DNA of 64,000 bases from Geosiphon pyriformis uo1 (Eukaryota > Fungi > Glomeromycota), in NCBI GenBank assembly GCA_016748015.1, contig JAAOMT010000690.1, forward strand, positions 62,001 to 126,000. The letters are read 5' to 3'. Each line of letters opens with the position of its first letter. The stretch's first letter is position 1. The position numbers and the translations under genes are program-made. This document shows, one piece after another, positions 5,628-64,000 of this stretch. The notes below the pieces were generated by a model. It had not been told where the DNA came from. It did no database searches and saw nothing but the letters and a program-made list of their open reading frames with translations.

Positions 5628-5803
5628 CCTTCCTGTGTCCAAGAATAGCTATTTGGCGAACTTAGATAGTTGACAGTCAAAATAAAATGTCCAAGAATTA
5701 TGCGCGTGATCCGTCACGTTATCTCTTGAGTCAAATCAAAAATCTAACAGCTTCTTGAAGAAAGTGAGCAATCTTTCTTTTATAGTACATAATTTTTACT
5801 AGT

Positions 5804-34817: not shown

Positions 34818-35679
34818 TGTTATTCATAGAAATATAGAAAATATATTAGCATAATTATTAGCCAATCAGAAGTAGACATAGTAAATGTGGAATTCCAGGA
34901 TTCCTCCCAGGAATTGCAGGATTCCAGGAATTACAGGATTCTCACACAAAGAATTGCAGGATTCCAGAATTCCAGAATTCCTCTTAAAAAAATTGCAGAA
35001 TTCCAAGAATTTTAGGATTCCTGTCATAAAGAATCAAGGAATTAAAGAATCTCAATTATGTATATATAGCAGTAGAATTAGAAGCTGAAAAGACAGACCT
35101 TTCAGTTTTAGATTTGATCTAAGAAACCTTTTAGTTCCCAATCATTAAATAAATAATTATTTCATATCTCAATCCACTCTCCACTATCAACACTTCATGT
35201 TGATAGCAATTGATACTTAAAAACACTAGAACAATAGCTCTTAATTATGGCTATTAATAGAATACTAACTTGCAATTGCATCTTGGCCAAAATTCTATTT
35301 TCTCTTTATTTTTCTTTTATTTTCTTTTCTAGTTTTTTTTGATTTTACTGTTGTGCACTAATTGATTGAATAAAGCGTTAGATTACTGATGTCAAGAATT
35401 ACCTAGTAAAAAACCCCTGCGAAAGGGTAGAATATATACAGTAGATATGGAATACTTACCAGAAGATTGCTGGCCACTAAGCTGAGAAAAGAATTGACAG
35501 ACTTGTGAGTCTAAGAAGCTATGGATAAAACAACTATTGAATCTCTGTCCATTATACAAAGGACTCTAACAAAACCTTCAGATACAAAACCTTCAGATTA
35601 TCAACAACGTGAAATAGTCTTGAGCACTAAGTTACGGATCTATTATTTAATCTGAAACCCCAAATATTCAACTGTAATA
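34818..35679 (+). repeat. Element A 5' LTR
   Basis: Direct repeat of 63175-64000; CCAAT box, roughly 9-bp GGAATTCCA-like repeats, TATATATAG at about 35061. Confidence 0.95.
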
Positions 35680-35742
35680 TTTGGTGCTTCTTGTGAGGTA
35701 TAATCCTACAGAGAACCAGCACCAACAAAACACCATCCAAAA

Positions 35743-38338
35743 GTGGCAGAATCAGAAAATATCATTTAGAATTTGCAAAATTCTTATTTTAACACTATTG
35801 TCAATACTTGGAATTAAATCACAATCATATATCCACCGAATCAGCCTTCAATTTCTACGTCAACAAAAAGATTTCCTCTTTGTTAGGAACACCAGTAAAT
35901 ACTGAATCAACAAGAAAAACTTTCTATAGAAAATTAATTCAAAACACCAACCTATCAACAAACCATAATTTCACATCTATCATCACTGAGATCAACAAAG
36001 AAATTGAACATCACACCCAACAAAGATACCCAATTACATATGCTAGTAAAAGCAAAAGAAAACTACAAATACCAGCAGTAACACCCAGAAAGATACAACC
36101 ACCTACTTGAAAGAAGAACAAAGTTGAATCTCCAAGTAACCCATCCTACTACTATACACCCAAAAACACCATCAACATATCATCAATAGACACACCCCCA
36201 TCAACTGCGACATCAGCATTTGGACAATTCCCATTCCAAAGTAGACAAAAAAAAATGGAATTATTAGAACCATATGGCGAATACTTTAAGGGATTTAATT
36301 CATGATCACCAACCCCATCAGGACTTCAATCACCACCACCTCCACCAGATTTTGGAATTTCTGATCCATAAAAAGTAACAGAATCAGAAAAAGAGGAAGA
36401 AAAATCAGAGGATCAAGAATTCACTTATCAACACCCGATTACTGAAAACCTGGAAGTTGAAACCTCAAATCTTCAAGCTCAGCAAAATTTAAATCTAAAA
36501 AATTTGGAAATTGAAACTTCGAATCATCAAAAACAGAACAATCCAAACTCCGAATTAATTAATCAGCACAACTTACCTCCGGTAATCGTCATCGATCAAC
36601 TGCCGATTAATCCAATAGCCAAGCCCATCTAGCAGCCATTTCAACTACCACCCCAACAACCAGTACAACAACAACCACTTCAACAACCACCATAACAACC
36701 CAACTTAGATCCAATGGCATACACACCAATTGCAAAACTTAACAACTTTACCGGCAAAGAGGACAATGTGCAAGTATGGCTGAATAACATAGAGAAAGCC
36801 ATTACTGCAAACAGATAAAATAACGCCTAAGCACTTCAAGCCATTCCATACTTTCTAAGGGACACCACAGATGCATGGTATCAAAGTCTAGCTGTCAAAC
36901 CCCAAACTTTCAATGACTTCAAGACAAAATTCTTAAGATATTTCAGCAACAATAATAGCATCAACAAGTTAGCCAACTTCTTTACCACCATTAAACAAGG
37001 AGATACTAAAGCAGTCACCACTTACTTGGAACACTTTTATAGAAACCTGTGTCAGATCCAAGCAATTCAAGCTGACTATTTTACAGCACCACAAATTTTG
37101 AACCAATTTATTAGGGGTTTGTGCAATAACCTCCTCCAGCGAGTATGCCCAATGCATCTAGTTGACCTTTCTACTGCAGTTACACATGCCAGAGATTTTG
37201 AAGCAGCTGAGTTAGAAGCCAATCATGCCCAAGCAGTAAACCTAGTAATGAATAGATCATCTAAATTGGATTCCAAATTGAAACAATTCAGTGAGTCAAT
37301 TAATCGGAAACTAGAGGAATACTTAACTGACAATCGCACCATATATCAATCATCACAACGACGCAATAATTCAGGAAACATGAATCATTTCCAAAATCAG
37401 TCACATCCATTATCATCAGCAGCACCTAGTCAGTCGTGGCAGCCAGAAATGTGTGTCTACCACAACTGTGGTAAACAAGACCATATTTGAGTTAATTGTC
37501 ATACTTATAGCAACTAACAATCGAAAAATCAATACAGAAACTCTGATCACCAGTTCCAAACTCTGAATCATTATCCAAATCAAGATCAAGCCCCATATCA
37601 AAATACTTACTTGCCAATGATGCAGCAACCAGTCTATCAACTACCAGTATATCAACCTCCAGTTTATTAACTACAGCCACTGGCAATTTATCAACAGCAG
37701 CCTCCAGTAATTTATCAGCCGCAGTCCCAAATAATTTATTAGTCTCAACTATCAATCCAAACCCCACTTCAAAACTCAGTTATGATAACATCAGGAAACC
37801 CGAGACTTAGAATTGCTCAAAATTGGAGATTAGTGATGGTTGTTCATCAACTGATCTCCAGCTCTTCTTACCAAAGCTTAGGATCCTATTCTCGGAATTC
37901 AGGTACAGATGCCACCCAAAACCTGAATTTCCAAAACTATTTAAGTCTCCTGGTTACTCCAGAAAATACCACACCCAACAACCAAGAACTTAAACAAACA
38001 CCTATCAGCAACATTCCACCTGCCATGATAATAAAAGATGAATCTCTGGATGCCATTTTTTCATTCAAACTCAAAAAACCATCAACCATGCTATTATTCA
38101 ATAGAGCTGCATTGGAAGAAAAGCCAATTACCACTATGTACACTAATGTGAAAATTGATGGCCATCCTATCAAACTAATTCTTAACAGTGGTTCAGCAGG
38201 CAGCATCATTATATGACAATTTATGGATCAATTAGGTCACCGAGTTGATCAAGCTGCCAGTGCCAGAATTATCACAGCTGATGGAGTGACCAAGACTCTA
38301 ATCGGCGAAATTGATGACTTACCAATCGAAATTAACAG
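35743..38338 (+). pseudogene. Element A gag and protease N-part
   Basis: AIPYFLRDTTDAWYQSL, QILNQFIRGL, eroded zinc knuckle at about 37451-37499, LILNSGSAGSII (eroded DSG). Confidence 0.9.
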
Positions 38339-39617
38339 TGTTACCAGACGAAATTAGAGATATTATTTAACATGAAATTATCTTTATAATTCCTATCATT
38401 AATTAGCATATATTATTATTTCAAATTATCACTTATTATATTAGCAAAATATCCGAAATTATCATTTAATTAATAAACCAATTTATACATAACACAGATG
38501 TAACCTAATTGTGATGATCAATCATGCAATACCCTGAAATATGTAACATTCAAAAGTTTGCCAAAATTTGTAGAAATTCACTGAAATAATTGATAGTTCA
38601 CCGAAATATCTAATAGTTTGCAGAAATAACTTGTAGTTTACTGAAATGTATCTTTAGTTCAGCAAAATTGTAGAAAAGAGCAAAGTTCAAGTTCATAGAA
38701 TAGTATTATGACAAGTTGTATAAAAGAAGAGCTTTTCTCTTTGAGAAAATGTATTTTACTTTAGATTTAACAATTAGAATCATCCTTTATACACAAAAAC
38801 GAAATAAATATCAAATAATTTGAAAAATCAAATCCTTAATTATTCCTCTTTTTGAAATTAACCAATTCCTACTAAACAGTTTTGAAATTGATTAGCTACC
38901 AATTTCAATAAACCATTAGTAACTCCAGGCCTGGATAGAAAACGTTTCTCTTGACAGAATTCTATTTCTTTTATTTTTTTATTATAATCATTAGGGTAGC
39001 CTACAGACAAGATTCCTGTAGAAGAGTTAACTTTTACAGCAAAGTAACTACACATTTTTAGTGAGCTTCTAGACAAGCAATTCCTGAAAAAGAGTTGATG
39101 TTTACTATAACATAACTACACAAAGCAACTGGCATGGAATTGGTCATTCCACTTATAAGCCCAGCAGTTTAAATTATAGGAAATAATTTGAAGATAAATT
39201 CAGTTACTGGAGGTTCAACCACATTCAGACAACATGAATTCACAACAAATAGGCATCAACAACATTAAAGAAAAGAGACCAAAAACCTCTGGTAATATTT
39301 GGTGCTCTCCCATGGAAATAACACAGCAACAACAAATTCAAAGTGGCGACCACACCAGACACAACAACTCTAGAATATTACCAGTCAATTTACACCCACT
39401 GCAAGCAAAGATTCAACATTCCAGACGAAATTGAAGTTGTCAAGAAATCAGTATACCAATACATTGAAAACCACATCAACAATTATCTTTTTGGAAACTA
39501 CAACATTTCAGAAGTTAGAAACAATCTCTACAATAATTTAGTGCACTATTCACAATTGAGAACAGAAGACCTGAACAGTGAAACACTTGCTACCTACTTC
39601 CAAGAACTTAATTTTAA

Positions 39618-39637
39618 NNNNNNNNNNNNNNNNNNNN
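39618..39637. other. Assembly gap (20 N); others at 51559-51578, 55979-55998 and 58919-58938
   Basis: Runs of N seen directly. Confidence 1.
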
Positions 39638-39681
39638 TTGGTGCTCTCCCATGGAAATAACACAGCAACAACAAATTCAAA

Positions 39682-42600
39682 GTGGCGACCACACCAGACA
39701 CAACAACTCTAGAATATTACCAGTCAATTTACACCCACTGCAAGCAAAGATTCAACATTCCAGACGAAATTGAAGTTGTCAAGAAATCAGTATACCAATA
39801 CATTGAAAACCACATCAACAATTATCTTTTTGGAAACTACAACATTTCAGAAGTTAGAAACAATCTCTACAATAATTTAGTGCACTATTCACAATTGAGA
39901 ACAGAAGACCTGAACAGTGAAACACTTGCTACCTACTTCCAAGAACTTAATTTTAACATTATTGAATATTGTGAAGAAAAATACTCAGTTCAGTCTAAAT
40001 ACTCTTTTAACTTTGAATCAGAGACAGAAACAAGCAACAAAGACAAACAAAAATTGAAGCAATACTCAAAAACCACTCCAAATACTCCAATACTACCAAA
40101 AACAACTGCCAAACACTTACAAACATCTGAACAAGGAACCAGTTCAAAACTCCTACTTACTATCACACCTTTTCCAGCTTCACTTGCACAAGCACAAACT
40201 TCTAATTCACCTTTAAATCAATTTTCAAGACTAGAAGATTATACATCACCCAGAAGTCTCACCAAACAACAAAAAACCCTTCAGACTAGTACCAATCTTC
40301 TTGACTATTTAGCAGAAAACCCAAGCGAACACTCTGAAATATTAGCCAACAAAGAAAACGTTTCTGAATCCATTAAAGAAGAAGTAGAATCCGAAGAAGA
40401 AAGTGAATTAACAGATAACAAGAAAAAAAAATGAAATGACAGCTTATATTGCAAAAATTCTTGAATTTAATGAAGAAGATACTGAGACCAGTCCCCAAGA
40501 ATGGCTTGACCAAGTTACTAAAACTGGAGATGCAAATAGATAGAATGCTGCCAAAATGTTAAGAACAATTCCCTACTTTCTCAAAGGAACAGCAAGAGAA
40601 TGGTTTGAAAACTTGGCTGCTCTATTCAATGATTGGAATGCTTTCAAAGCAGCCTTCCTTGAACAGTTTACCAACAATAATACCTTTATCACCCTTCGAA
40701 ATCAGTTTTGCAATATCAAACAAGAATCCTCCAAATCTGTTATGACTTATCTTGGAAAGTTTAACAAACTTCTCAAAAGGATTTGTCAACTCGAAACCAA
40801 TGATTATTACTCAAACGCTCAAATCTTGGATCAATTTATTGCTGGTCTAAAGGATAAACTGATTAAAAAAGTTCACTTACATGCCCTGGAAGATTTAAAC
40901 TCTGCCATACAGCATGCAAAAAGATATGAAATGGCCATAGAAGAGGCCAATCACACAAAACTTGTAAATTTGGCAATTGGAAAAACCAGCTCAGCAGCTG
41001 AGGAGAAAATTGACCAACTTACAAAAAAGGTTGAAAACTATTTCACCAACCAACAACAACAGCAATCCCAAAGATATCAACCACCCCAAAAATGAAATCA
41101 AAATAACTTTGCACCACTTTCTAATAACCAGCCTCAGAATTGCCATTACTGTGAAATCTTTGGCCACTGAAAAAGAGATAGCAGAAAGCTACAATGAAAC
41201 CAACAAAATAGGAGTAATCCACGTTACCCTCCACTACAGCAATCTTATTATCAATCACTACCACCAGCTTACTATCCATCAAGACTCCAACACCAAAATA
41301 ACTATTATCAGCCTGCCCCACAGCCAATCCAACAGCAATACCAACAACCACTCACACAACATTATCAAGTACCTGCTTGAAGATTGATTACACAAAATCA
41401 ATTCACACCACAAAACCGATACCAAGTAAACAACAATAGAATCAGTTCAAATAACTAATTAGTTCCCCAAAATTTAGCTTAGCCAAGACCCACCTATTAT
41501 CATACTCAACCTAGCTATCTTACAATATCTGAAGAACAGGATTTTTATCATACTGCACTCTCAGAAAGTAGAGCCACAGCATGACAACAAAACTCTTCCT
41601 ATACTCCTACCACAATCCCACCAGCCAGAATTGCTGAAAACGCCAATCTTTCAGATATATTCCCTTTTGAGTTTGAAGCAAATAAGTCACTATTCCTGCT
41701 TAGCAATGCAGCTGTCAATGAACAAAAAACAATCACTGCTATGTACACCAAAGCAGAAGTCAAAGAAAAGGCAATTCGCTTGATCCTAAACAGTAGATCT
41801 ACTGGAAGCATCATCACCTACCAGTTGATGCAACAGTTAAAAAGAAATGTCAACTGACCAGCTCAGACAGTAATCATTACTGCTGATGGCATAAAAAAGA
41901 CTTCAGTAGGAGAAATTAATAATTTTCCATTCACTCTTGTTAGAATCACTATTCCAGTTAAAGTTCTTGTAATGGACGCTCCTCAGTATCAAGCTTTTGT
42001 CAGAAATGACTGGCTTCAAAAAGCCAATGTGAAATTAGACTGGAAAACCCAAGAACTACAAATCTCTTACCAAGAACAATATGTCCGAGTATCTGCCACT
42101 TGTGGTACATTCAACAAACACTCTGAAAAAGCCCTGGCTTTTGAATTTGAACCAAAGGAAGAAAAACCAATAATCGAAACATTCATGGCTCTTGGATCAA
42201 CATCCAATTGGGCTGAGGAAACTGAACAAGAACATTTTACTCCACACTCTGAACCTAAAACTCCTGGATAGAATATCCCTTACTCAAAACCTAAACCAAG
42301 GAAATGACACTCCTATATTCCTCTTAAATGTAAGGACTGCCACAAGAAACTATCATCAATAGGAGCTTGTATTTCACCTGAGGAAGAATATGAGAGTTAT
42401 ACCTGCTACTACTGCAAGGCCTGCCATCAAGAACAATGGGGCCACTTGATCAAAAGAAGCAGAAAATAGAATAGAACACCCTGTTTTACTTGTAGAAAGC
42501 AGCTTTTCGATGAATGTGACTAGATTGATGTCACATTTAGAGGAGGAGTCTGTGATCAAACTTGCCAATATGCTCTTTCTATTGCAGAAAAGGTAAAACA

Positions 42601-45323
42601 TGGAACACTTTTCAATGCTGCATACAATAGTGTCCTCAACAAACTCCATTATTACTCCTATAACACCGAAATGATCTATGAACTTGCCATGGTTTTAATT
42701 AACAGAGGAACCAAAGAAAATGTCCTTCAAATAAAAGAAGCTGAATATATCAAATATACCTTGAAATTAGCTGGATTCGATTATGAAGATGAAGTAGAAG
42801 TATACCATCAAATCACAAGTCACACCTACCTAACCAAAGAAGCTCAAGCTCAACGGCTAGAGCAAATGAACATTAAATTATGTGAGGAATGCATAATGTC
42901 TTGTGATGAACAATGGTGTCCTAAATACTATGCCTTTAGCATTCCATTACCCAGTGAAAGTAACGAATATGAAATCAAATTTGGTGAACCTAAAGCAATA
43001 GAAGAAATTGAAATGACACCCATCTATCTTATTGAAAGTTAGCCTGCTTTACAGCTCAAATACTTCAACAACAATGAACAAGGAATAAAGCCTGAAAAAG
43101 CACATGAAATTGATGCTAAATACGATCTACAATATCCAGGAAAAGACACTTTGGTTCTTCAACCAAATTCCCTTACCAAGATCAATCTTAAAATTGCTCT
43201 CGAAATCCCACCAGGAGCAATGGTCCAAATTGCTTTATGATCATCATTGGCAAGCAAAGAAATTAATGTTAAAGAAGGAATTATAAATGCTGGATATACA
43301 GGAGACATTACAATCATGTTACAAAATGAAACCAATAAACTTTTTCAGATTGAACATGCTGAAAAAATTGCTCAAGCTATTTATTTACTGTTAATCAACA
43401 TTTCAGATTTACAATTAGTCAATCAAAGAGAACAATTGGGAAAAAGTAAAAGAAGAACCAATGGTTTTGGTTCAACTGGACAATTCACAGTTCCAGTAAA
43501 CATAGCTCTTAATGAACAAAATGAATCTTACCAGATTCTATGACTTTCACAACCAATTACTATTTCACCCTTTAGGGAACATCCAGAAATCTACACCTGC
43601 CCAAAGCCAACAACCACACAACAAATTTTTGAATCCAACAAACAAGTCTGCTTGGAACATAATATTTTGATCCCAAACATTTATATTCCAGAAGGAACAA
43701 AGAAAGTCTGAGTTACTTTTTACAATCTCAACAATTATCTCATAGTTTTATTAAATAACTTAGAAATTGGAGTTATTCACAGTAACATCTTTCAACAAAA
43801 ACTACCCCAAACAGTTCTCAATTTTTCAGAAATCATTGGACATTTACTACCAAAAATCAACCCAAACCCTAGCTCTGAAAACTACCATGTTGTCATGGAA
43901 AAATTATCTCGAATTAACATGGAACAACTTGAACCACAACAACAGAACCAGCTCAAAGAGCTAATTGCAGAATTTGCTAATATTTTTGCCAAAAACAACA
44001 ATGACTTAGGAAGAACCAATTTGGTTCAACACCAAATCTATACAGGAGATGCCAAACCAAGAAGACAACAAGCCTACTGAGTTGCTCTAGAAAGCCACCA
44101 ATTTATCAGAAAAGAAGTACAACAAATGCTTAACAATGGGCTTATTCAACCATCAATGAGTCCATGGGCTTTACCTGTGATCTTAGTTAAAAAAAAAAAT
44201 GGAAAGATACAATTTTGTGTTAATTATTGACAACTTAACAGTATTATCATTGGAGATGCCTACCCTTTTCTCCGAATTGATGACATGTTGGATGCCCTTG
44301 GAAAGTCCAAATACTTTTTGACATTAGATTTAGAGAGCAAATACTGGCAAGTTGCCATGGATCCCAAAGATCACCCCAAAACAGCATTTACCACTCAAAG
44401 AAGGAAATTATGAGTTTAATGTAATGCCTTTCGGATTATGCAATGCACCAGCAACATTCCAAAGACTTATGGATGTTGTTTACAAAGACCTCCTTTGGAA
44501 ATCAGTAGTTGTCTATCTCGATGATACTGATGTTTATTCACCATCTTTTGAATTACACTTAATACATCTGTGAGAAGTTTTTCAATGATTACAGAAAGCA
44601 GAACTGAAACTGAACATCAAAAAATGCTACTTCGGAAAAACAAGTTTGGCTTTTCTTGGCCACATTGTGAGCAAAGATGGAATTAAACCAGACCCCAGAA
44701 AAATCAGCACTGTCAAGAACTTCAAGACTCTATAAAATATCACAGAATTGAAAGGATTTATTGGATTAGCTTCCTATTACTGAAAATTTATCAAAGGATT
44801 CTCAGAAATTGCAAAACCCTTCAACCAGCTCACTACTAAAAACGTCAAATACAAATGGATGGAAAAACACCAAAAAGCTTTTGAAATTTTCAAGGAAAAG
44901 CTGACAACAGCTCCAATTCTCACCTACTCAGACTTCAGTAACTGATTTCGACTAGCTACAGACGCTTCTTGCACTGCCTTTGGTGCCATCTTATCACAAT
45001 TAGATGACAACAGAAATGAGTGAGTAATTGCTTATGCTAGCAGAACATTAAAACCAGCTGAGAAAAACTACTCTGCCACAGAACTAGAAACAGCAGCTGT
45101 AATTTGGGCCTTACACTACTTCAATCTTTATCTCAAGCCTAAAGAATTCAACATTATTATTGATAATATTGGACTCAAATGGCTTCAAAACAAAAACACT
45201 CAGCTGAATGCCAAACAAACCCAATGAACAGGATTTTTAGCCAACTACCAATACATTATACATCACAAACCAAGAAAACTCCACACCAATGTTGATTGTC
45301 TCTCAAGAATAAGGCAAGATTAG
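39682..45323 (+). pseudogene. Element B Gag-PR-Cys-rich-dUTPase-RT-RNase H
   Basis: TIPYFLKGTAREWF, protease LILNSRSTGSII, dUTPase GIINAGYTG/IAQ/GFGSTG, RT MPFGLCNAPATFQ and YLDD, RNase H LATDAS, ending NVDCLSRIRQD*. Confidence 0.92.
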
Positions 45324-45373
45324 AACACAAAATCAACACCCATTTGAATTAGCAGTAACAAAAACAACAAACA

Positions 45374-46759
45374 ATGAACCCTGAAAACTACAAAAATCTC
45401 AAACAATATTTGGAGACATTAATAATTCCAACAGATTGGTCTTTAGATGAAAAACACCAATTACAACAAAAAGCCAAACAATATTTTCTATACAACAACA
45501 CCATTTATTATTGAAACTTCAGAAACCCAGACAAATCACTCAGATTAATACAGGAAAATGAGAAGAAAACTATCTTATACAACATGCACTCAGACCCTTT
45601 ATCAGCACATTTAGGAAAAAATAGCACCACCCAAAAAACATTAGAACACTACTTTTGGCCCCAAATGAGAAAAGACATTCATGAATACATTAAAACTTGT
45701 GATATTTGTCAAAGAAGAGAAGGAACTCGCCCTATAGAACCTTTAAATCCAATCAAAGTTGGACAACCTTTTGACCGAGTTGGTATCAATTTAGTCAGAC
45801 CACTACTTATTACAAACCAAGGAAACCATTATATCGCAGTAGCTATAGATTATCTCACCAAATAGCCTGAAGCCAGAGCCATTCAACGAGCAGATGCAAA
45901 ATCAGTAGCAAACTTTATTTACAAAGACATTATTTGTAGACACAGATGTCCAATCAAACTTTTATCTGATCAAGAAACACATTTTGTGAACAATCTAATT
46001 CAAGAAATCTGTGAACAATTCAATGTTAAAAGACTATTATCTTCATCCTACCATCCACAAACAAATGGACTTGTAGAATGTTTCAACAGAACATTGTGTA
46101 AATCTTTAGCCAAAGTCTTAACAAATTTTGAGCAGGAATAGGATATCTTTATTCCATCAGTGTTACTAGCATATAAAACACTAAAACAAGATACTACAAA
46201 ACACACACCATTTGATTTAATCTATGGAAGGACAGCAACATTACCAATTAGTTTCACAGTGAAAACATACCCAGTACAGTCAATTAATGAAGACAACTTT
46301 CAGGAAACACTGCAATAAAGAGTCTACACTCTGCTTAGCACATTGGAAAGAAAATGACAAATAGCAGCAACTCACATTGAACACTCCCAAGCTCAACAAA
46401 AAGAATGGCATGACAACAAATTGCCACCAGTCACCAATAAATTTAAAATTGGAAACAAAGTTCTCTTACACAGAACTAAAGCCAAAAAACAATGGAGTGG
46501 AAAATTTGAAAATAAATGGGATGGACTATTCTTTATTCATGAAATTCTAGGCAATGAATTATACAAGTTAAGACTTGATAACAAAATCCTAGCAAAAGTT
46601 ACACATGGAGATTGTTTAAAACACTATAATTCTAGAAACAATCCTGAACCATTAATTCCACAAATTGGTACACATTCCCCTTTAATCAATCCCAAAGATA
46701 TTTCCCGAAATTTAGAACCAATAGTTGTCATTGAACAACCTCCCAACTTGAACACTTAA
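45374..46759 (+). pseudogene. Element B integrase (separate ORF)
   Basis: MNPENYK..., HHCC (HSDPLSAH...CDIC), INLVRPL, SDQETHF, YHPQTNGLVE, KWDGLF GPY/F-like tail; no chromodomain seen. Confidence 0.9.
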
Positions 46760-46921
46760 TTTAAATTTATTATTATAGTTATCTCCTTAATTTAGAAACA
46801 ATCTCACAAAAACAAAACAAAAATAACATAAAAACCCATACACCAAAAATAATTTTCCTTTATTTTCAAATCTCTTATAATAATTATTTCTTAAAACATT
46901 CAACAATTATCCCAAAAACTA

Positions 46922-52086: not shown

Positions 52087-55000
52087 GTGGCGACAAAAAC
52101 CCCTAATCTTACTGTTCTTGAATTCTGCCATGCTATTTACACACAAAATCAAAGTGATCTTGGATTACCAGAAGGGTGTTGTCCAGCAGAATCTGCCCTC
52201 ACTTATTATATCAATGCCAGAATAAATTATCATATAGGAAAGGAAGAAGAACCACACGATGCAAAACTTGGATTGTATAGAGAATTATCACAATACACTA
52301 CAAAAGAAGTAGCAGTAATAGCCGCAATTATTGTCAAAATCCATCAAAAAATTGAGCAATACGCCAACGAAAATTTTCCAATATCCACAGGAAACACTAG
52401 GGAATGCATCAACAAAACCAAAGAAAATTTAGAAACTAATCAGGAAAGTAACCAGCAAAAACTAGGAACACCAGCTCAAATGCCAAAGAAAACTGTCACT
52501 CAATCAATAAAGAAACAGCGTATTTATTCACCAGAAGATAAATCATACCATTTTTCACCAGAAAATAAGATACAAATTCCATTAGGAGCTGCATCATCAT
52601 CAACATCAACTCCACAAATGCCAAAAACTCCTAGTTATATTGATAAAATTAAACAACGTAACTGGAAAGACATACTAATTACAGGAGGATATTTATCACT
52701 ATTCCAAAATCCTCTTTTTCAGCCAAAATTTAGAACGGGGTTTGAAAACCGTGAAGAGGAGTTTGAATCGGAATCCGAAAAAGAGACCAGCGAAAAAACA
52801 ATCACAAGACCAGTCACTGGAACAAGCAGCCAGTCCAGAAACCAAGAAACTCATGATCAAGAGGAAGAACCGGATATAAGGGAAGCCACCTTTAGGAATG
52901 CTCAAGGAAATATCATCCCACCTCCTCTTAGACCAATAAACCCACCAGCAGAAAACGGCAATGAAATGACCACACTATACATTGCAAGACTAACAGATTT
53001 CTCAGGAGAGGAAGAAGAAACGGACGTGCATACATGGCTCAGAGAAGCACAAAAAGCCATCCAGACAAATAACTGGAACAACCAAAGAGCAATTCAAACA
53101 TTATCTTTCTTCCTAAAAGGCACAGCCAACTTGTGGTATCAAAGCCTAGAAACAAAACCCACGAGCTTCGCCGAATTTAAAAATGCACTTCTGGAGTATT
53201 TTAGCGACCCAAACACCATAATCCAACTACAGAACAAATTCAATACTATCAAGCAAAATACCAGTGAAACTGTCACTCAATACCTTGCTCGATTCAATCA
53301 AATTCGCCGTCAGATTGAAGCGATTAAACAAGGATACTACACTGATTCTCAGGTTTTAAATCAGTTTATTAGAGGATTAAAAAGCAGCATTTTAGGAAGA
53401 GTACACCCTGCCCACTCTAATTTCTTACCAGAAGCTGTTACGCTCGCCAGAGCCCTTGAATCAGCTGAGAAAGAAGCTAACCATAGTTAAATGGTTAACA
53501 TAGTAATGGAGGAAAATAAGACAGAAACATTAGAGAAAAAAGTAATGTGATTAAGGGAGGAACTCTCTAAGAAAATAGAAAGTTACCTCATCCCGAATCC
53601 GAGAAAAAATACATACCAACCACCCCAAAGATGCAGCCAGGAAGTCAACGACAGTTGAAATAATCACTTGTCGCGCCAGGAATTCAGAACAGAAACACGC
53701 GTCTGTCATTTTTGCAAACATGTAGAACATTTGATTAGTTAATGTTAAATGCGAATGATGCAGAAAGCATGCGAAAATAATTACTACGCGCCACCCCAAA
53801 TGCCCAGAAACCAGTACATGCCAATACCACGCCAATATCCCACCACATATCAAAATCAAGGAGCTTACCAGCAACAGCCCATGATAGCCAACCCGAATTG
53901 GCATCCCGAGGCCTAAAATCAGCCCATGTGGAACCAGAACGCGTTGGTCCAGAGAAATCCAAACTGCGCCAGAACCAATCAGCAAACCAATCTAAACTAC
54001 CAAAATTATCAACAAACTTACCTTAATATACCAGAAAACCTGATCATTAGAAACAATGACGGTAGAAACATAAACAGAACCAAGAATTCTTCCAAATTGA
54101 GCCAGACAATACCACCAACAGTTGCCACCGAAGATAGCAGCCTTGCAGCTATTTTTCCTTTTGAATTAGAGGAAAACAAGGCTATGTTCAGTGGAGCAGC
54201 ATTGGACGAAAAACGCCCAATCACTGCTATGTATATGGAAGCCACTGTAAACAATACCCCAATCAAACTTATCTTAGACAGTGGATCCGCTGGAAGCATC
54301 GTAACACTTCAACTAGTAAACCAACTGGGTTTCAAAGTTGATCATGTCGCGACATCCCAAATCATAACAGCCGATGGAAGTACAAAGCTGCCTTATGGCA
54401 AAATCGACTCATTCCCTTTTGAAATTAACGGCATAGTAATATTTACAAAAGTATTAGTAATAGACACTACACAATATCAAGTGTTAGTAGGGAATGACTG
54501 GTTAACAAAAGCCAACGCCACCCTAGACTGGACCACCCAAGAGCTTCTGATCAATTATAATGGCCACCAGGCCAAAATTCCAGCCACCTGTGGCCACTTC
54601 CAAAAACCCAGCGCCAACTAAAGACCTACCTTCGAATTTGAGGAAAATCCAGCACTACCAGCCATCGAAACCTATCAGCTCTCTTGGACTGATGACCAAA
54701 GAACAAAACTACCAGCCGTACCAATGTGGACCAGCGAAGAAAGATCCGAATGGAACCAGGTAAGTTCACGAAGAAACCACCAGCGATGCAGACCAAAGCT
54801 AGAATGTTCGGTTTGTAAGAAAAAACTCTCGTCTATGACTGCATGCAGCGCACCAGACGAAGACCCAAGAAACCCCACCCACTACTATTGTAACTGTTGT
54901 AACAAAAAAAAATATGGTTACCCAGAAAGACATGGAAAATGGGACGAGGAACCGTGCTTCGCTTGTGGAGAACCATTACCAAGAGGGTGCAACTGGAACA

Positions 55001-57517
55001 ACTTACCAGGCAGAGGAGGAACGTGTGATGCAACTTGCCAATACACGATCCTCATCTGTGACTGGATAAGAGGAGGAATGCCATTTGAAGCAGCATTCAA
55101 CAGAGCGTTAAAAAGACTACAGCACTACCCACACGACGAGGACAAGTTGTACAACACCACACAAGCCAAAGTAAGAGGAGGAACTACTGAAGAAATACGA
55201 CATTGGAAAGAGTCAGCTGAAGTAGCCGACAAAGTTGCCAGCTACAACATGTTCGACCCAGTGGATGAATTCCAGGACTACTACCAACAACTATGCCCCA
55301 CTCGACAAGAGCAAGAACAATACCTCACCCAAATCAACACTTACCTCTGTGAAAACTGTCTCATCCCGTGCCAAAATTAGTGCTGTGAAGAGTGTCAAGA
55401 CAAAAGGGACTTAGAAAGAAAAATGGAAATTGAGAATCAGCAGTCTCAAAATCAATCAATAAATCAACAAAACTCACCTGACAGTCCCAAGTCAGAAAAA
55501 TTTGTAGCCTATACTGACCTAGAACAGGTGACTGACATCCAATACTTCGACAACAGGCACTTAGGAATAATACTCGAAAGAGCCCATTCAACCAACGCCA
55601 GATTCGATCTACGTTATCCGGAAGACCAATCCACAACGTTACCACCCAGGAGCATCACCAAAATCGACCTAAAAATAGCGGTTGAAATTCCGCCAGGAAT
55701 AATGGTTCAAATGGCATCATGATCAAGCCTTGTGAAAAAAGGAATAAGCATTTAAGGAGAAGTAATTAACTCTGGATACACTGGAAATTTGATGGTTTTG
55801 CTACAGAACAATTCAGAAAAGTCTTATACCATTGAATCTAAGAAAAAGATTGCACAAGCAATTTTCCTATCATTGGTAAAAATTGGGAAATTCGTGCCAG
55901 TGGAAAATCATGAGGAATTGTCACAAACAATGAGAAGAACTTTTGGTTTCAGATCGACAGGAAAAGAAATTGAAGCGANNNNNNNNNNNNNNNNNNNNAA
56001 CACCACAAGAAATTCTAAATTTCCCAGAAATTGCCCTCTACTGTGAACTCACTTCAATAAATTGGCAACAACCGGTAGAATGCTATCAATTTACACCAGA
56101 AGAATTGGCCAAATTAAACATTGGAACAATGGATCCTGACCAACAGTGACAATTAAAAGCATTAATTTTAAAATACTCTGATATATTTTCAAGAAATGGC
56201 GAATTTGGAAGAACCAACTTGGTTCAACACCAAATCCCCACTGGAGATGCCAGACCTGAAAAACAACGCGCTTACTGTGTCCCATCAATGGAGCATAATT
56301 TTATCAGAGAAGAAGTCCAAAGCATGTTGGAAAAAGAAATAATACAACCATCAATAAGCCCATGGTCCTCACCAGTTGTTTTAGTAAGGAAAAAGAACGG
56401 AAAAATTAGATTTTGTGTCGACTATTACAAACTAAACAGTAAAACAACCAAAGACTCATACCCAATACCATTAATTAACGAAATCTTCAACGTTTTTAGA
56501 GGAGCAAAATGGTTTTCTACACTGGACTTGACCAGTGGGTACTGGCAAGTGGAAATGGACCCAAAAGACAGGCATAAAACAGCATTCACAACACAAAATG
56601 GCAATTATGAGTTCAATGTAATGCCATTTGGATTAACAAATGCTCCTGCGACATTCCAAATACTAATGGACGTAATTTACTCCGGAATCCTGTGGCAATC
56701 CATTGTTGTCTACTTGGATGATACAAATGTTTTCTCGTCAAAATTCACGGATCATCTCCAACATTTACAACAAGTTTTTGAGAGATTGAGACACACTGGA
56801 CTTAAACTAAATCTAAAAAAATGTTTCTTTGAGAAAAATGAGCTAGCATTTTTAGGACATGTAGTTGGAAAAGATGGAATAAAACCAGATCCATCAAAAA
56901 TAGACAAAGTGAAAAATTTTCCAGTATCTTGAAACATTTCAGAAGTTAGAAGCTTTTTAGGACTTGCATCTTACTACTGCCACTTTGTAGAAAACTTTTC
57001 AAACATCGCCAAACCCCTTAATTACCTACTATCTAAAAATGTGAAGTTTGAATGGACTGAAGCACAACAAAAAGCTTTTGAGTACCTTAGACAAAAGCTC
57101 ATTGAATCACCAATAATGATCTATCCGAATTTCAACAAGAAATTCATTTTGGCCACAGATGCCTCTGGAACTGGACTTGGAGCCATTCTGTCACAAAAAG
57201 ATGATAATGGAAGAGAACATGTAATCGCTTATGCCAGCAGAAATCTCAGTATGGTAGAACAAAACTACGCAGCACATGAACTTGAATGCTTAGCAGTAGT
57301 CTAGAATTGTGTTCACTTTGACACATATTTACGGTACCAACCCTTTGAGATTACAACAGATCATAGAGGTCTGGTCTGGTTAAATAACAAGAAAGCACTA
57401 AAAGAAAAATATGCCAGATGGTCACAAATGTTAGCACCATATGATTATATTATCAAATACAAAGAAGGTACCAAAAATGCTAATGCCGACTGTTTGTCAA
57501 GAATGAGACACACATAA
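52087..57517 (+). pseudogene. Element C Gag-PR-Cys-rich-dUTPase-RT-RNase H
   Basis: ORF pieces starting 52087, 53926, 54724, 55423 and 55789 share one frame; LILDSGSAGS, dUTPase motifs, YLDD, LATDAS, ending ADCLSRMRHT*. Confidence 0.93.
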
Positions 57518-57546
57518 AAATCACCAACCCACCCACCACAACAACA

Positions 57547-58918
57547 ATAAACAACCACCTTTACAAAAACCTCAGCCAATACTTGGAAACACTACAAATA
57601 GACAAAGAAATGCCAGTAAAAGAGCTAATTAAGCTCCAAAAATTAGCAAAACACTATTTCATCCAAAATCACATACTTTATTACCGGAATCGACAAAATT
57701 CAGATAATCCATTAAGAGTTATAACCACGAATGAAAAAGAAACTATCTTATTTAATATGCACTCAGATATTCATTCAGGCCACTTTGGAAAAACAGCAAC
57801 CATCCAATGTGCAACTAGCCGTTACTATTGGCCAAAAATGAGTTTAGACATAATCCAATACATAAGAAATTATGACCTATGCCAATGAAAAAGAGGAGCA
57901 AAAACAATGGAATTATTAAGACCAATAAAAGTTGGACAGCCATTTGACAGAATCAGAATTGATTTAGTTGGACCCTTACCAATAACAACAAGAAACAACC
58001 ATTATATTGCAGTAGCCATGGACCATCTCACCAAATAGCCAGAAGTTAGAGCTATTAAAACAGCTGATGCTATTTCCGTAGCTTAATTCGTACATGAAAA
58101 CTTAATTTGCTGACATGGATGTCCACAAGAATTGCTATCAGATCAAGGCACACACTTCGTAAACAGCACCTTAAAAAAACTTAGCCAAAAATTTGGAACC
58201 AAGCGACCACTGTCATCACTATACCACCCTCAAACAAATAGATTAGTTGAAAGATTTAATCACACATTATGCAAATCACTGGTGAAAATTAGTAACGAAC
58301 ATGAAAAAGAATGGGATTTGTTCATACCAGCAGTACTACTAGCATATAGAACAGTAAAACAAGATACTACACAATTCACACTGTTTGAACTAGTTTATGG
58401 AAGAAAAGCCACATTACCCGTTGAACTTACTATCCCAACTTATCCAAGTGACACTATCACGGAAGCAATATTCCAGGAAACACTACTTAGAAGAACATAC
58501 GAATTAATGGGAACTTTAGAAAACAAAAGAAGAAAAGCAGCACAAAATATTGAACAATCACAAGAACAACAAAAAGTGAGACATGATAACCAGTTACCAG
58601 ATAATATAATTAGCTACAAAATTGGAGATAAAGTATTGTTGCATCGTACAAAAATGGAAAAACAGTGGAGTGGAAAATTTGATCACAAGTGGGATGGACT
58701 ATTTTATATTCACGAAATACTTGGAAATGGAGCATACAAGCTAAGACTAGATGATAAAATATTAAGAAAAGCAGCACATGGTAACCGGCTGAAATTCTAT
58801 TACAGTAAACCAGTAATAACAACAAAAACACCCAGAATTGGAACACAATTACCTTTAATTCTACCAGAACAAATTCCACGAGATTTAGAACCAATAGTTT
58901 TAATTGAACATTATTCGA
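57547..58918 (+). pseudogene. Element C integrase (separate ORF; presumed start ATG eroded to ATA)
   Basis: (M)NNHLYKNLSQYLETL, HSDIHSGH, IDLVGPL, SDQGTHF, YHPQTNRLVERFN, KWDGLF. Confidence 0.88.
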
Positions 58919-58938
58919 NNNNNNNNNNNNNNNNNNNN

Positions 58939-59200
58939 ACTATTAGAACCTTTCATTGGAAAAACCAACACTACATTCCATTCAAAAACAGTTTACAGAA
59001 TTTTCAAAGCATTTGAAAACTGTCACAAATTATTGTTGGACCCAACCATGAACATAATAACAACCAACAGTATTGGACGACTTACCAACTTGTAATTTCA
59101 AGAATTACAACAACAAATTAATAACACAGTATTGAACCATTATAGTAACTTAGAATTTAATGAAGAAATTAACTTTGATTTCGATGGAGCTCAATCTTGA
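58939..59200 (+). pseudogene. Element C ORF3, C-terminal part (5' part lost in N gap)
   Basis: FIGKTN..VYRIFKAF..IGRLTNL*FQELQQQI...FDFDGAQS*, alignable with ORF3 of A and B. Confidence 0.65.
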
Positions 59201-60084
59201 AAGGAGGGGATAATGTTACGGTTTAAGAATTTAGCAAAAAGAATCATAAAAATAATACAAACTATTCAATCATAATATAGCACAGTAATAATCTTAGAAA
59301 GGTAATGATTAACATAGTAGCAAACACCATCTTGTGATAGTGACAAGCACCAGTTCACAATAGCAGCCAACACCAACTGGTGATAGCAGCAAACACCAGG
59401 TTGAAATATCAAAAAGAAAGTATTTTCTTGTAGAACTACAAACATGTATATATACAGTAGTTTTAATATTGGGAAATAATCAATCAAGTAATAAAAATCA
59501 TAACTTATCAAGCAACAGATCCAATTTTATCCAACAAACTCCACTTTAAATCATACTTTCAAATTAAATATCTTAAGAAACCTTTAAAAATCAAAAAGAA
59601 ATGAAAAAAAATATTTAAAACGGAACTATCACAATCCAAAGTATTAAGAAACTTACTTGTATTATTTATTGAATGAAACTATCATTCATCAACTGAATCC
59701 CTTGGAAGAATAATCCTTGATCAAGATTATTCACATTGTTACTAATTAATAAAAGCTTTATTGTAAGAATTAGAAAAGCGCTAAAGACTATTAACATTCT
59801 GTGTTTCTAGATTAGAGAAACACATCAGGCAATTGCAAGGATAGCCTCAGAGAAGACTCCAGACAGTGGGTAGATTTCAGTTCAGCCTCTGAGAAGGAGT
59901 ACATAAACACACACAACAATCAAGAATTAAAGAATAACTTACATCACAACAGTAAAAAGAAAGCCTTCAGTGTAACAGTGACATTATCACACAAATAGAA
60001 TTGAAGAACTCACAAAAGACTGATTGCAATTAAAGCAGGATATCAGCAATTAAATATAACAAGAAAACCATCTTGTAACACCGA

Positions 60085-61030
60085 CAAAGAGAAGACGGCA
60101 TTTACTACTAAAGAAGGGAATTTTGAATTTGAAGTAATATCATTTGGCTTAACCAATGCTTCAGCCACTTTCCAACAGTTAATGGAAATTGTTTATATGG
60201 GCTTATTGTGAAAATCAGTAGTTGTATATTTGGACGACACCAACATATTCTCAAAAACATTTAATAATCATTTTCATCATCTTCAACAAGTGTTCGAAAG
60301 ATTAAGAAGAGCAGAACTAAAGTTAAATGCAACAAAGTGTTTCTTCGGCAAGACAGAACTAAAATTTTTGGGACACATAGTCAGCAAAGATGACATTAAA
60401 ATAGATCCAGAGAAAATAGAGATAGTAAAGAACTTTCTAATGTTGACTAATATAACAGAACTGAAATCATTTTTGGGATTCACCAGCTACTATTGACGTT
60501 TTATCAAGAACTTTTCCAAAATAGTGCAGCCACTCAACCAACTGCAAACCAAGAACACAAAATATGAATGGACAGAAAGTCAACAAGAAGCTTTTGATAT
60601 TCTGAAAAGAAAGCTCATCCAAGCTCTAGTACTGATCTATTCAGATCACAGCAAACCATTCATCATCACCACCAATACATCCAGCCAAGCATTAAGAGCA
60701 GTACTATCTCAAAAAAAACCAGACAGTAGAGAACATCTAGTAGCATATGTCAGCTGAAGTCTAACACTAGCTGAAAAGAACTATGGAACACCAGAACAAG
60801 AACACTTAGCAATCTACTGGGCAGTCATGAAATGGAATGAATACTTGAGCCAAAAGTTTGATATATACACAGATCATAAAGAATTAACATTACTTCACAA
60901 GCAAAAATGTGATGATGGCCGCCAATCCAGATAGAAAATGGCACTTTCACAATATACTTATACTATACACTATAAGAAAGGAAAAGACAACGGAAATGCC
61001 GATGGTTTGTTGTAAATAAGACAAATCTAA
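60085..61030 (+). pseudogene. Element A RT C-part and RNase H
   Basis: KEKTAF, FGLTNA, YLDD, KFLGHIV, YTDH, NADGL(SR)IRQI*. Confidence 0.92.
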
Positions 61031-61094
61031 AAACATTTTCAAACCCAAAAATATAATAAAACCAGAACAATACCAACAAAAATACAACAAAAAA

Positions 61095-62471
61095 ATGAAC
61101 ATACAAAAATATCAACAAATTCAACATTATATAACCACTCAACAGTTCAAGGAGAATTTATCTCAAACAGAACAAAAAAGTATCAAACAACAATCAAAAT
61201 ATTTTATCATGCACCAAAATATACTTTATCAGAAAAATAGAAGGGATCCAGATCAACCAACCAGAGTAATTACAGAGCCAAAAAAAGAGACAATATTATT
61301 CAACATGCATTCAAATCCAACAGCAGGACATTTTCACAAAGAAGCAACCATGGAAAGAACCAAAAAGAGATGCTATTGGCCATCAATGTATTCAGACATC
61401 ATTCAATATGTTCAAAATTGTGATATTTGTCAGCAAAGAGGAGGAACAAGACCCAGTGAACTATTAAAACCAATCAAAGTAAGACAACCATTCGACTGTA
61501 TTGAAATTGATTTAGTCGGACCATTAACAATCACCAGCAGAGAAAACAGATACATAGCAGTAGCTATGAACTATCTCACTAAATGGCCAGAGGCGAAAGC
61601 AATTCAAAGAGCAGATGCAGAATTTGTTGCCAAATTTGTTCACTAGGATTTGATTTGTCAACATGGATGTTTAAAAGAATTATTATCAGACCAAAGAACT
61701 TATTTTGTGAACAGAACATTAACAGAATTGAGCCAAAGATTCGGAATTAAGAGACCATTATTATTGCCATACCATCCACAAACCAATGGATTAATTGAAA
61801 GATTCAACAGAACATTGTGTGAAGCAATAGCTAAGCTCAGCCAAAAAAACCAGGACAATTGGGATTTGTTCATACCATCAGTACTATTTGCTTATCAAAC
61901 AATGAAACAAGATACTACACAAGCAACACCATTTGAATTAGTGTATGGGAGGACAGCAATATTACCAGTAGAGAAAGAAATTAATACATATCTAGTTGAA
62001 CCAATAACAGAAGAGAATTTTCAAGAAATATTGCTGAGAAGAACATATGATCTAATGAAAACATTGGAAAACAAATGAAAAAAAGCAGCTGATAATATTA
62101 AAAAGTCACAAAAAAAACAGAAAGAAAGACACAATAGTCAACTACTCAACAGACCAGTTGAATTCAAGATTAGAGACAAAGTACTCTTACATCATACCAA
62201 AACGGAAAAACAATGGAGTGGAAAATTTGACCCCAAATAGGATAGACCATTTCACATAAAAGAAATTCTAAAAAATGAAGCTTACAAATTAAGACTGGAT
62301 AACAAAATTTTAACCAAAGCAGCACATAGAGATTGACTAAAACCATATTACAACACTATACCACTCTCCACCAGTAATATTCCACAATTAAGAGTACAGA
62401 GAATACTAGTCCAACCAGATGAGATTCCACGAGATCTGGAACCAATCATTATTATTGACAACAACATGTGA
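61095..62471 (+). pseudogene. Element A integrase (separate ORF)
   Basis: MNIQKY..., HSNPTAGH...CDIC, IDLVGPL, SDQRTYF, YHPQTNGLIERFN, PRDLEPII. Confidence 0.92.
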
Positions 62472-62501
62472 AATTGATTCATTAAAAGAAAATATAAAGA
62501 C

Positions 62502-63155
62502 ATGGTAGACGTGACAGAAAATATCAGAAAAATGGAAATTACAGACAACATCCACTCACTAGCTCAACAACTTTTTCAATTGATCCAACACCAAGAAATG
62601 GAGATTACAATCAATCAATAAACCATTCGATATCAAGATACTAGAAAGATATTGTAAAACAGAAAACAGAAGAAACCAGAAAATACCATCAACAAAATCA
62701 TTATAAAAGTAAAATTGGCAATAAAAGAATTAACAAAAGAGTCAATATACCAAGAGTTGATGAAAGAAACTTGGAATTGGTGGATACAACAATTTCCAAG
62801 AAACTATTGTTATTTTTACTTGAGACAACATGTAAATATTCAGAATTTATACATGAATAAAACAAAGCAGTTATTTGACACAACAATACTACAACAATTA
62901 AAACATTTTGTGGGAAAAAACAACTTATCTACATAAGCTCAAGCTATATACAGAATACACACAGCATTTCAGAATCGACCAGAAATCTTATTCAACAAAG
63001 CAATAGATATGATTACCAGTAATTAATTGGGAAAGATCACCAATGCTCAATTTGAAAAGTTACAAACTCAAATAACACAAATAATTCTCGAAAACAAAAT
63101 CCAAGAAATACTTCAAGAGGGGGAATTAAAAGAGTTGGATTTTGATGGAGTTTAA
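62502..63155 (+). pseudogene. Element A ORF3
   Basis: One frame MVDVTEN...YFYL...AIYRIHTAF...LGKITNAQFEKLQTQI...LDFDG, interrupted only by TAA codons. Confidence 0.68.
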
Positions 63156-63174
63156 TATTAAAAGGAGAGAATAA

Positions 63175-64000
63175 TATTACTCATAGAAATATAGGAAATA
63201 TATTAGCATAATTATTAGCCAATCAGAAGTAGATGTAGTAAATGTGGAATTCCAGAATTCCTTCCAGAAATTGCAGGATTCCAGGAATTACAGGATTCTT
63301 ACACAAGGAATTGCAGGATTCCAGAATTCCAGGATTTCTCTTAAAGAAATTGCAGAATTTCAAAAATTCCAGGATTCCTGTCATAAAGAATCAAGGAATT
63401 GAGGAATCTCAATTATGTATATATAGCAGTAGAGTTAGAAGCTGAAAAGACAGACCTTTCAGTTTTAGATTTGATCTAAGAAACCTTTCAGTTCCCAATC
63501 ATTAAATAAATAATTATTTCATATCTCAATTTACTCTCTACTATCAACTCTTTATGTTGATAGTAATTGATACTTAACTATACTGGAACAATAGCTCTTG
63601 ATCATGGCTATTGACGGGATACTAATTTGCAATTGCATCTTGGCCAAAATTCTATTTTCTTTTTATTTTTCTTTTATTTTCTTTTCTAGTTTTTTTTGAT
63701 TTTACTCTTGTGCACTAATTGATTGAATAAAGCGCTAGATTACTGACATTAAGGATTGCCTGGTAAAAGACCCCTGCAAGAGAGTAGAACACATACAGTA
63801 GATATGGAATACTTACCAGAGAATTGCCGGCCACCAAGCCGAAAAAAGAATTGACAGACTTGTAAGTCTGGAAAGCTACAGATAAAACAACTATTAAATC
63901 TCTGTTCATTATACAAAAGACTCCAACAAAACCTTCAGATACAAAACCTTCAGATCATCAACAATGTGAAATAGTCTTGAGCACCAAGTTACAGATCTAT
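63175..64000 (+). repeat. Element A 3' LTR (truncated by window end)
   Basis: Follows PPT AAAAGGAGAGAA; direct repeat of 34818 onward. Confidence 0.95.

Follow-up and report, generated by a model that had tools for sequence, protein, structure and literature searches.

We report here a nest of three Ty3/Gypsy retrotransposons with long terminal repeats (LTRs), elements A, B and C, in a 64,000-nucleotide stretch of the genome of the glomeromycotan fungus Geosiphon pyriformis (contig JAAOMT010000690.1, positions 62,001 to 126,000 of the forward strand; hereafter the window, whose own numbering is used throughout). The pol gene of these elements is almost certainly split at the boundary between RNase H (RH) and integrase (IN): one long frame encodes Gag, protease (PR), a Cys-rich domain, a dUTPase, reverse transcriptase (RT) and RNase H and then stops, and integrase and a third open reading frame (ORF3) follow as separate genes. 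The same split was found in intact relatives, and the split-integrase group is apparently an undescribed variant of Ty3/Gypsy. Retroviruses and LTR retrotransposons normally make and package integrase as the tail of a Gag-Pol protein, a rule that accounts for how much of it there is, when it is made and how it enters the particle; a widespread group departing from this rule implies a different solution for all three. Our preferred reading, to which we assign a probability of roughly 0.4, is that integrase is made by translation termination and reinitiation.

The split pol gene in the window and in its relatives

The three elements were aligned from the capsid methionine to the end of RNase H over 1,819 codon columns. 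A stop stands in one element at 49 columns, in two elements at 8 (mostly decay of Trp or Arg codons) and in all three at a single column, the last one, right after the RNase H end motif. Beyond it, integrase lies in a frame that differs from the RNase H frame in A, B and C, behind spacers of 64 nt (A, 61031-61094), 50 nt (B, 45324-45373) and 29 nt (C, 57518-57546) that contain no ATG, have no predicted fold and hold 1, 3 and 0 G residues, respectively. The stand-alone integrases occupy 61095-62471 in A (458 codons), 45374-46759 in B (HHCC finger, DDE core and GPY/F-type region; PF17921, PF00665) and 57547-58918 in C, where the end is lost in an assembly gap. They open with ATG in A and B, and with ATA at the same conserved Met place in C, which fits G-to-A decay. 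The frames of A and B end about 45 codons past the GPY/F-SH3 region, no chromodomain was present among the Pfam matches of these two complete frames, and the best solved relative of the integrase profile was the Ty3 Gag-Pol protein (E 7e-48, PDB). An earlier interpretation made from the letters of the window (the sequence-only reading) had proposed this stop after RNase H and a separately started integrase; the former was confirmed, and the latter was borne out by the other frame, the conserved Met and the ATG of A and B, except that C reads ATA.

Direct LTRs of TG..CA type, a primer-binding site (PBS), a polypurine tract (PPT), target duplications and the order PR-RT-RH-IN identify A, B and C as Ty3/Gypsy elements, and these features are shared with canonical Ty3/Gypsy elements, including the fungal chromovirus and Ylt1 clades (PMC2864245, PMC3248453). 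A Pfam scan, run on frames with stops read as X, recovered Gag, protease, dUTPase, RT, RNase H and then integrase (H2C2 and rve) through the Gypsy-type families PF03732, PF19259, PF17917, PF17921, PF00665 and PF24626; the protease matched in A and C, and that of B fell below threshold but is alignable. In canonical elements integrase forms the end of Pol, encoded in one or two ORFs, whereas the present elements give it a start of its own and place ORF3 behind it. The LTRs of the three elements do not match one another in blastn at E 1e-3, their PBS sequences differ and their Gag-RH proteins are 40-47% identical, upholding the view that three divergent families share one layout.

The nest lies on the + strand at 34818-64000. 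Element A (34818 to beyond 64000, with its 3' end outside the window) hosts B (38339-48551) within its protease gene and C (51243-60080) within its RT gene, both also on the + strand. As had been noted for elements with both ends visible, 4-bp target duplications flank B (ACAG/ACAG, 38335-38338 and 48552-48555) and C (CTGA at 51239-51242, CCGA at 60081-60084). LTR pairs are 91.2% identical in A, 94.5% in B and 96.5-98.7% in C, a ranking that gives the order required by the nest. Transitions account for 141 of the 145 differences between paired LTRs and transversions for 4, and all three elements are dead copies riddled with transitions. Their families occur in large numbers: of the contigs of run X1, 80,625 mapped to 39638-51558, with mostly transition differences. 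No RNA record was listed for the stretch of B, a result without bearing on its expression. According to the excerpted text of PMC11952901, LTR sequence makes up 41.2% of the G. pyriformis genome, with no description of element structure there. The termini TGTTAC..GTAACA hold as a family pattern, from which 5 of the 11 visible ends deviate (TGTTAT/TATTAC, GTAATA, ATAACA); TGTNR termini are general among Gypsy elements (PMC2836005). Four 20-N gaps interrupt the nest, one of which takes in the start of ORF3 and the end of integrase in C, and the assembly contains 39638-39956 a second time, as the duplicate 39299-39617.

A search with A's integrase among proteins of 251-802 aa found 1,028 proteins, 120 of which were listed; all 120 of the matches listed are 359-453 aa long and 102 of them start with MD, ME or MN at one aligned place, starts in these relatives being those chosen by gene callers. 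Among 80 metagenome loci examined (L numbers below; P numbers denote proteins), RNase H and integrase occur together in 39, made up of 24 split loci with an ATG, 8 fused loci, 3 decayed ones and 4 with another order. The 24 split loci, which include the near-copies L012/L013, L021/L048 and L024/L037, have the ATG at the exact conserved place in 20 cases, an RNase H/integrase frame relation of 0, 1 or 2 in 8, 6 and 10 cases, and spacers of -8 to +827 nt (four overlaps of -1, -4, -4 and -8, five spacers of 24-39 nt, nine of 62-110 nt and six above 150 nt). All 8 fused loci are distant, with at most 38% identity to A's integrase. On the RT-RH side, 73 long proteins with one full RT-RH match were retained from 120 listed; at 52% identity or more, integrase was present in 4/52 and the protein ended within 25 aa of RNase H in 38/52, and below 52% integrase was present in 11/21.

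Named members of the group include intact-looking stand-alone integrases in Rhizophagus irregularis (GET66802.1, GET57239.1, GBC53574.1, GET60683.1) and a Pol ending at RNase H in R. clarus. The distinct lineage proposed by the sequence-only reading is thereby supported: the split is present in intact relatives, and a continuous RT-RH-IN with an AUG-started gag did not appear. Since R. irregularis is a model mycorrhizal fungus, the expression of the split group can be tested with existing RNA data. The split could also account for the numerous solitary "DDE integrase" gene models in such genomes, which may be mistaken for DNA transposons or for broken copies. Some split relatives have an extension of 200-580 aa between RNase H and the stop (L013:3496-4441, L016:2419-3274, L028:4950-6705; also P0160, P0171, P0216 and P0220). 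One integrase of the group, P0298 (PYY19639.1), is annotated in an Acidobacteria metagenome bin, a likely contamination, and downstream of a distant fused element lies an ORF (L073:9155-10069) that we take to resemble a deoxynucleoside kinase.

Expression of the separate integrase

In our preferred reading, ribosomes would reach the end of the long Gag-protease-(Cys domain-dUTPase)-RT-RNase H frame and would restart at the next AUG to produce integrase and then ORF3. Restart over a short, AUG-free, unfolded spacer would be inefficient and would yield the small amount of integrase needed; little integrase from restart suits a single Gag-RH frame. In the subclade of A, B and C, gag would start at a GUG, a weak codon in strong context; integrase, which Gag-Pol would no longer bring in, would be packaged through binding to Gag, RT or RNA, and ORF3 would serve as a soluble accessory factor. 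Restart is favoured by the stop/start overlaps, which occur on four separate branches, and by the spacer lengths, at most 110 nt in 18 of 24 loci. The last 60 nt before the integrase start have 0.81 ATGs per 100 nt, against 2.0-2.8 further upstream, and the start context has A at -3 in 25/38 and G at +4 in 34/38 cases, whereas a branch point with an acceptor is not enriched (5/17, against 18/51 in the background). Stop-restart junctions are known from victoriviruses (AUGA), hypoviruses (UAAUG) and caliciviruses, whose termination upstream ribosome-binding site (TURBS) has UGGGA shortly before a stop/start overlap. AUGA or UAAUG overlaps in 4 of the 24 split relatives resemble these viral junctions, unlike those of the window.

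Several observations weigh against restart. Six of the 24 spacers exceed 150 nt and some contain ATGs (7 in L004, 18 in L012, 12 in L028, two in L016), and plain post-termination scanning cannot cross such long, ATG-rich spacers. The three junctions of the window (64, 50 and 29 nt) have no overlap, UGGGA was found in the last 100 nt before the stop at 0 of 17 junctions, and the RNase H end has no excess of synonymous conservation. Eukaryotic ribosomes restart poorly past a very long frame unless a helper element assists them, an AUG-poor unfolded leader suits a subgenomic mRNA equally well, and in a sister subclade the AUG is preceded by a structured element that hints at another route. Different branches may use different routes.

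Subgenomic mRNAs are the first of these other routes. Env mRNAs and foamy-virus pol are made as subgenomic or spliced RNAs, and integrase and ORF3 could arise likewise, from an internal promoter near the RNase H end or by splicing from the 5' leader, a route that we hold possible though somewhat doubtful. Long spacers with many upstream ATGs (L004, L028) suit a promoter, as does the 316-nt AT-rich, ATG-containing spacer before ORF3 in L002; ATGs are depleted only within some 60-120 nt ahead of the start, a stretch as long as a short 5' leader, and both frame and spacer length would be free. However, acceptor signals before the ATG are not enriched and C's spacer is without any AG, no promoter signal was found, no conserved nucleotide motif marks the RNase H end, and the repeated exact stop/start overlaps, which restart accommodates, would be unexplained. 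As subgenomic mRNAs translated by ordinary scanning are compatible with the layout, the earlier statement that the downstream genes must be expressed non-canonically was too strong.

Internal ribosome entry, at the A/C-rich unfolded spacer in the window's subclade or at a structured RNA element 3-4 nt before the AUG in the sister subclade, seems unlikely to us. It draws on a roughly 40-nt covarying hairpin located 3-4 nt before the integrase AUG in the sister subclade, and further from it in four loci. Fifteen loci carry it (L013:4464-4500; L007, L008, L010, L012, L014, L016, L018, L019, L023, L029, L032, L042, L047 and L054), in every case shortly before the integrase start. A model derived from 12 of them recovered those 12, the near-copy L012 and the new loci L054 and L008, the held-out L054 scoring 46 bits; nowhere else in 361 kb did a match exceed 18 bits, with one weak match elsewhere (L074, 18 bits). 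Seven of the 13 predicted pairs have two-sided changes, a level reached by 0/500 shuffles and 0/6 slid controls, the shuffle test being overstated by the relatedness of the loci. The hairpin marks one integrase subclade (support 98; 15 of 16 metagenome members), including two R. irregularis families; the 15 loci had no match in Rfam at E up to 1, and its pattern gave 0 matches in viral contigs. This new short RNA element may drive translation, but it may equally be a protein-binding, processing or packaging signal; the window lacks it (best score 10 bits, E 1.4), and single-sequence folding was no better than shuffles (z -0.6 to +0.2).

Other breaks in the coding sequence exist in split relatives. 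In L017:2898-2960, gag and pol overlap in different frames at TTTAAAA followed by a possible stem, a candidate -1 frameshift site in an element that also has a split integrase. An in-frame TGA-CTA, which we take to be a stop-codon readthrough context, stands between protease and RT in L004:870-875, L038:1585-1590 and L028:3358-3363, on two branches, and represents a candidate readthrough site at an unusual place. In one subclade a Gag domain was seen in 0/23 proteins, for which short contigs may explain part. Since split relatives keep such older breaks, the break at RH/IN was added rather than, as the sequence-only reading had it, moved there: it is an added trait common to the split group, and the single Gag-RH frame, the GTG, the Cys-rich domain and the dUTPase are traits of the subclade.

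Origin of the split and likeness to known systems

Our trees included plant and animal Gypsy proteins, with outgroups taken from unnamed or loosely named matches. A, B, C and L002 group firmly (RT 100/93 in IQ-TREE; 100 in the integrase tree). In FastTree, 77 integrase-less rows formed one group (support 98); outside it fell P0222 as well as P0234 and P0198, which lie among fused elements and are likely truncated. The integrase tree unites 30 of 31 split rows (support 85) and places closest to them the fused LTR-element integrases L044, L053 and L071 (99), of which L053 and L071 are presumably Athila/Tat-like; the loci with integrase before RT (L057, L059, L066) branch apart. The split group is likely monophyletic, with one origin by fission, which would have occurred at the linker normally cut by protease. 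Against this single origin weigh an IQ-TREE analysis of 58 rows, where split rows stand on one side of a branch with support of only 61/22, an unfinished tree search that placed the fused L044 inside the split group, and L064, which lies outside the 85-supported group of the integrase tree. A quick tree placed the plant outgroup inside the split group.

Open-licence PMC and bioRxiv texts yielded no account of a Gypsy group in which integrase has an ORF of its own, Repbase, GyDB and REXdb being outside the scope of this search. A likeness exists to Ginger1 DNA transposons and the GIN1 and GIN2 genes, with a stand-alone Gypsy-type integrase that has its own start, 4-bp duplications and TGTNR ends (PMC2836005). 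Unlike the elements described here, which have LTRs, an RT and the targets ACAG, CYGA and CTGC, Ginger1 carries inverted repeats and OTU/Ulp1 tails, lacks Gag and RT and has CCGG as its target (PMC2836005). It is very unlikely that a captured Ginger1-type transposase replaced the element's own integrase. Ginger1 is a roughly 400-aa YPYY-HHCC-DDE-GPY/F unit (PMC2836005), and the integrases here, of 400-450 aa, start at a similar conserved Tyr-rich stretch, likened to the published YPYY by its description. A Tyr-rich motif of roughly 40 aa before the HHCC finger, to which the stretch seen here may correspond, is known in Athila/Tat, Cer1, Gypsy-1-I_RO and DGLT-A, and YPYY-bearing Gypsy integrases are treated as parts of Pol in the excerpts of PMC2836005, whereas those described here are stand-alone. 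The fused neighbours L044, L053 and L071 carry the same motif behind a short RH linker, and their proximity in the integrase tree, which was built without Ginger1 sequences, counts against capture. The split group could serve as a natural stepping stone when asking how Gypsy elements and the Ginger1/GIN integrase genes are related. It is extremely improbable that the split reflects decay, or that frameshifting or readthrough yields a normal RT-RH-IN fusion, for although stops and frameshifts abound in the window copies (with 68 stops in their Gag-RH frames), intact relatives have the same stop with spacers of up to hundreds of nt and in-frame stops just upstream of the integrase ATG, and all three frame relations combined with variable spacers exclude both kinds of recoding.

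Errantiviruses and foamy viruses also express a downstream gene or pol apart from Gag, and foamy-virus Pol is packaged without fusion to Gag. Here, by contrast, ORF3 has no hydrophobic segment as in errantiviruses, integrase alone and not all of Pol is separated as in foamy virus, and integrase lies downstream of RT, unlike in Gmr1-like elements. Among fungal Gypsy elements, PosPlaTy3-5, Tuber Tmt1 and Phanerochaete elements have a dUTPase in Pol, in PosPlaTy3-5 between protease and RT, so that this position was already known; the excerpts of PMC2864245 do not describe a separate integrase or a Cys-rich insert in them. A bolder reading would make the group an old undescribed clade whose tricistronic RNA is run wholly by translational tricks (a GUG start, restart or internal entry, with structured RNA on one branch, and UGA-CUA readthrough on another), with a free integrase whose packaging a new-fold ORF3 protein assists, and the living intermediate that gave rise to stand-alone Ginger1/GIN integrases; we consider this combination rather improbable.

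The Gag-to-RNase H frame, ORF3 and the surroundings of the nest

The candidate GTG start lies in AAAGTGGC, which is found in A, B and C at 41-79 nt past the PBS, 8-11 codons before a common LE(F/Y) motif. Three further A-family copies in the window each keep the GTG in frame and have a TAA 13 codons before it, without any ATG in the interval. Among C-family contigs (208 contigs of run X1, which drop rare variants), no variant at a 12% share was listed for the GTG or for the in-frame TAG and TAA upstream of it; an AUG start upstream of C's GTG was ruled out on these grounds. Gene models that cover the site read Val in 5 of 6 cases and Met in P0391, and GUG is among the more efficient near-cognate starts (PMC5666671). 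Gag thus probably initiates at GUG in the A/B/C subclade. Gag might alternatively begin at a Met conserved at the start of the capsid, and many relatives have predicted Met starts. The GTG may instead be a splice acceptor that creates an AUG, as the Met of P0391 would fit, but there is no pyrimidine tract and the five other gene models read Val. The GTG proposed by the sequence-only reading is a plausible candidate start, in frame and closed upstream in the two tests above. An apparent scarcity of ATGs between the GTG and the capsid Met was rejected as evidence for leaky scanning, synonymous-codon resampling giving 10 ATGs observed against 10.4 expected.

The frame itself is real, as the relative P0337 has the end of Gag, protease, Cys-rich domain, dUTPase with intact motifs and RT in one uninterrupted frame of 1,064 aa; P0357, a gene model related to B, has the N-terminal part and the capsid in one frame. 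In C it is open from 52087 up to the gap at 55979, so that the pieces before the gap do lie in one frame, as had been noted. The Cys-rich insert, about 200 aa long, keeps 12 Cys in 76-96% of aligned homologues and gave 431 matches among 1.84 billion representatives, with no Pfam family and no match in the 80 metagenome loci. Among 150 matches listed, 10 were checked and 9 were named G. pyriformis; by these names the domain looks Geosiphon-centred and lineage-restricted. It presumably binds zinc, and its structure model is poor (pLDDT 55). The dUTPase is patchy in the split group (5 proteins and locus L064).

In A, the 5' LTR (34818-35679, 91.2% identical to 63175-64000) is followed 2 nt on by the PBS, beginning TGGTGC (35682-35698), and by gag and the first protease part (35743-38338; PF03732, PF13975), where the window copy has a 10-nt deletion just past the candidate GTG and the capsid Met at 36714. 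The remaining protease, the Cys-rich domain (about 49078-49690), the dUTPase (49963-50316) and the RT start occupy 48556-51242, the remaining RT and RNase H 60081-61030 with the TAA at 61028-61030, ORF3 62532-63161 (about 209 codons, decayed), the PPT 63162-63174 and the 3' LTR 63175-64000, cut by the window end. Element B has its 5' LTR at 38339-39297, its PBS at 39640-39656 (with a second copy at 39300, from the assembly duplicate) and its long frame at 39682-45323, from candidate GTG to TAG, with two decay frameshifts near 40430 and 44400, the capsid Met at 40436, the Cys-rich domain at about 42314-42930 and the dUTPase at 43091-43480; ORF3 (46880-47599, approximate start), the PPT (47553-47567) and the 3' LTR (47568-48551, 94.5% to the 5' LTR) follow its integrase. 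In C, a gap-containing 5' LTR (51243-52004) precedes the PBS, beginning TGGTGA (52007-52023), inside which an ATG opens an 11-codon upstream ORF only. The long frame of C runs from candidate GTG to TAA (52087-57517, gap 55979-55998), with the capsid Met at 52966, protease at 54238-54507, the Cys-rich domain at about 54796-55395 and the dUTPase at 55570-55962, and is followed beyond integrase by the 3' part of ORF3 (58939-59200), the PPT (59200-59213) and the 3' LTR (59214-60080). No tRNA genes were found in the window for primer assignment.

An ORF3 homologue lies 3' of integrase in A, B, C and 14 loci (13 of them in the alignment, L064 weakly linked), at gaps of -38 to +316 nt; it was not seen in the split loci with enough downstream DNA L009, L015, L018, L025, L034 and L038. 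ORF3s are 130-230 aa long, with a peak 19-residue hydropathy of 0.5-1.3 in 17/17, and the lack of a hydrophobic segment means that they are not Env, as the sequence-only reading had held. Its other statement, that ORF3 ends at the PPT, applies to A and C, where the stop adjoins the PPT, and fails for B and L002, whose open frame crosses it, that of B extending 32 nt into the 3' LTR. No Pfam family matched ORF3. The structure model of a 147-aa relative, P0241, is all-helical (pLDDT 90); with this model Foldseek returned nothing at E 0.001 in PDB or BFVD and a wide search gave a best Z of 5.5, results that neither name ORF3 nor prove a new fold. The first ESM Atlas match was a Mucoromycota cluster (0.94, low recognition). 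By this modelling ORF3 is predicted to be a conserved soluble helical protein, presumably in a soluble accessory role. Right before the PPT lies a GGAGCT-containing stretch (47536-47553, 59183-59200, 63144-63161; L002:3090-3118), conserved as DNA while the ORF3 frames through it differ, which suggests a cis signal.

Elsewhere in the window, a tandem array on the - strand (14784-21677) comprises four A-type LTRs and three 1-kb internal pieces containing PBS, GTG gag start, dUTPase remnant and PPT, the whole flanked by CTGC duplications; it is a non-autonomous derivative of the A family. Older A-type LTR fragments lie at 25411-25960 (-) and 33827-34314 (+). The genes flanking the nest (TAP42-like, RCC1 repeat) are eukaryotic, and host-like exons (TAP42-like, 3-beta-HSD-like and RCC1 repeat) occur together with a remnant of a Tc5/pogo DNA-binding domain at 1837-7117 and 27123-27566.

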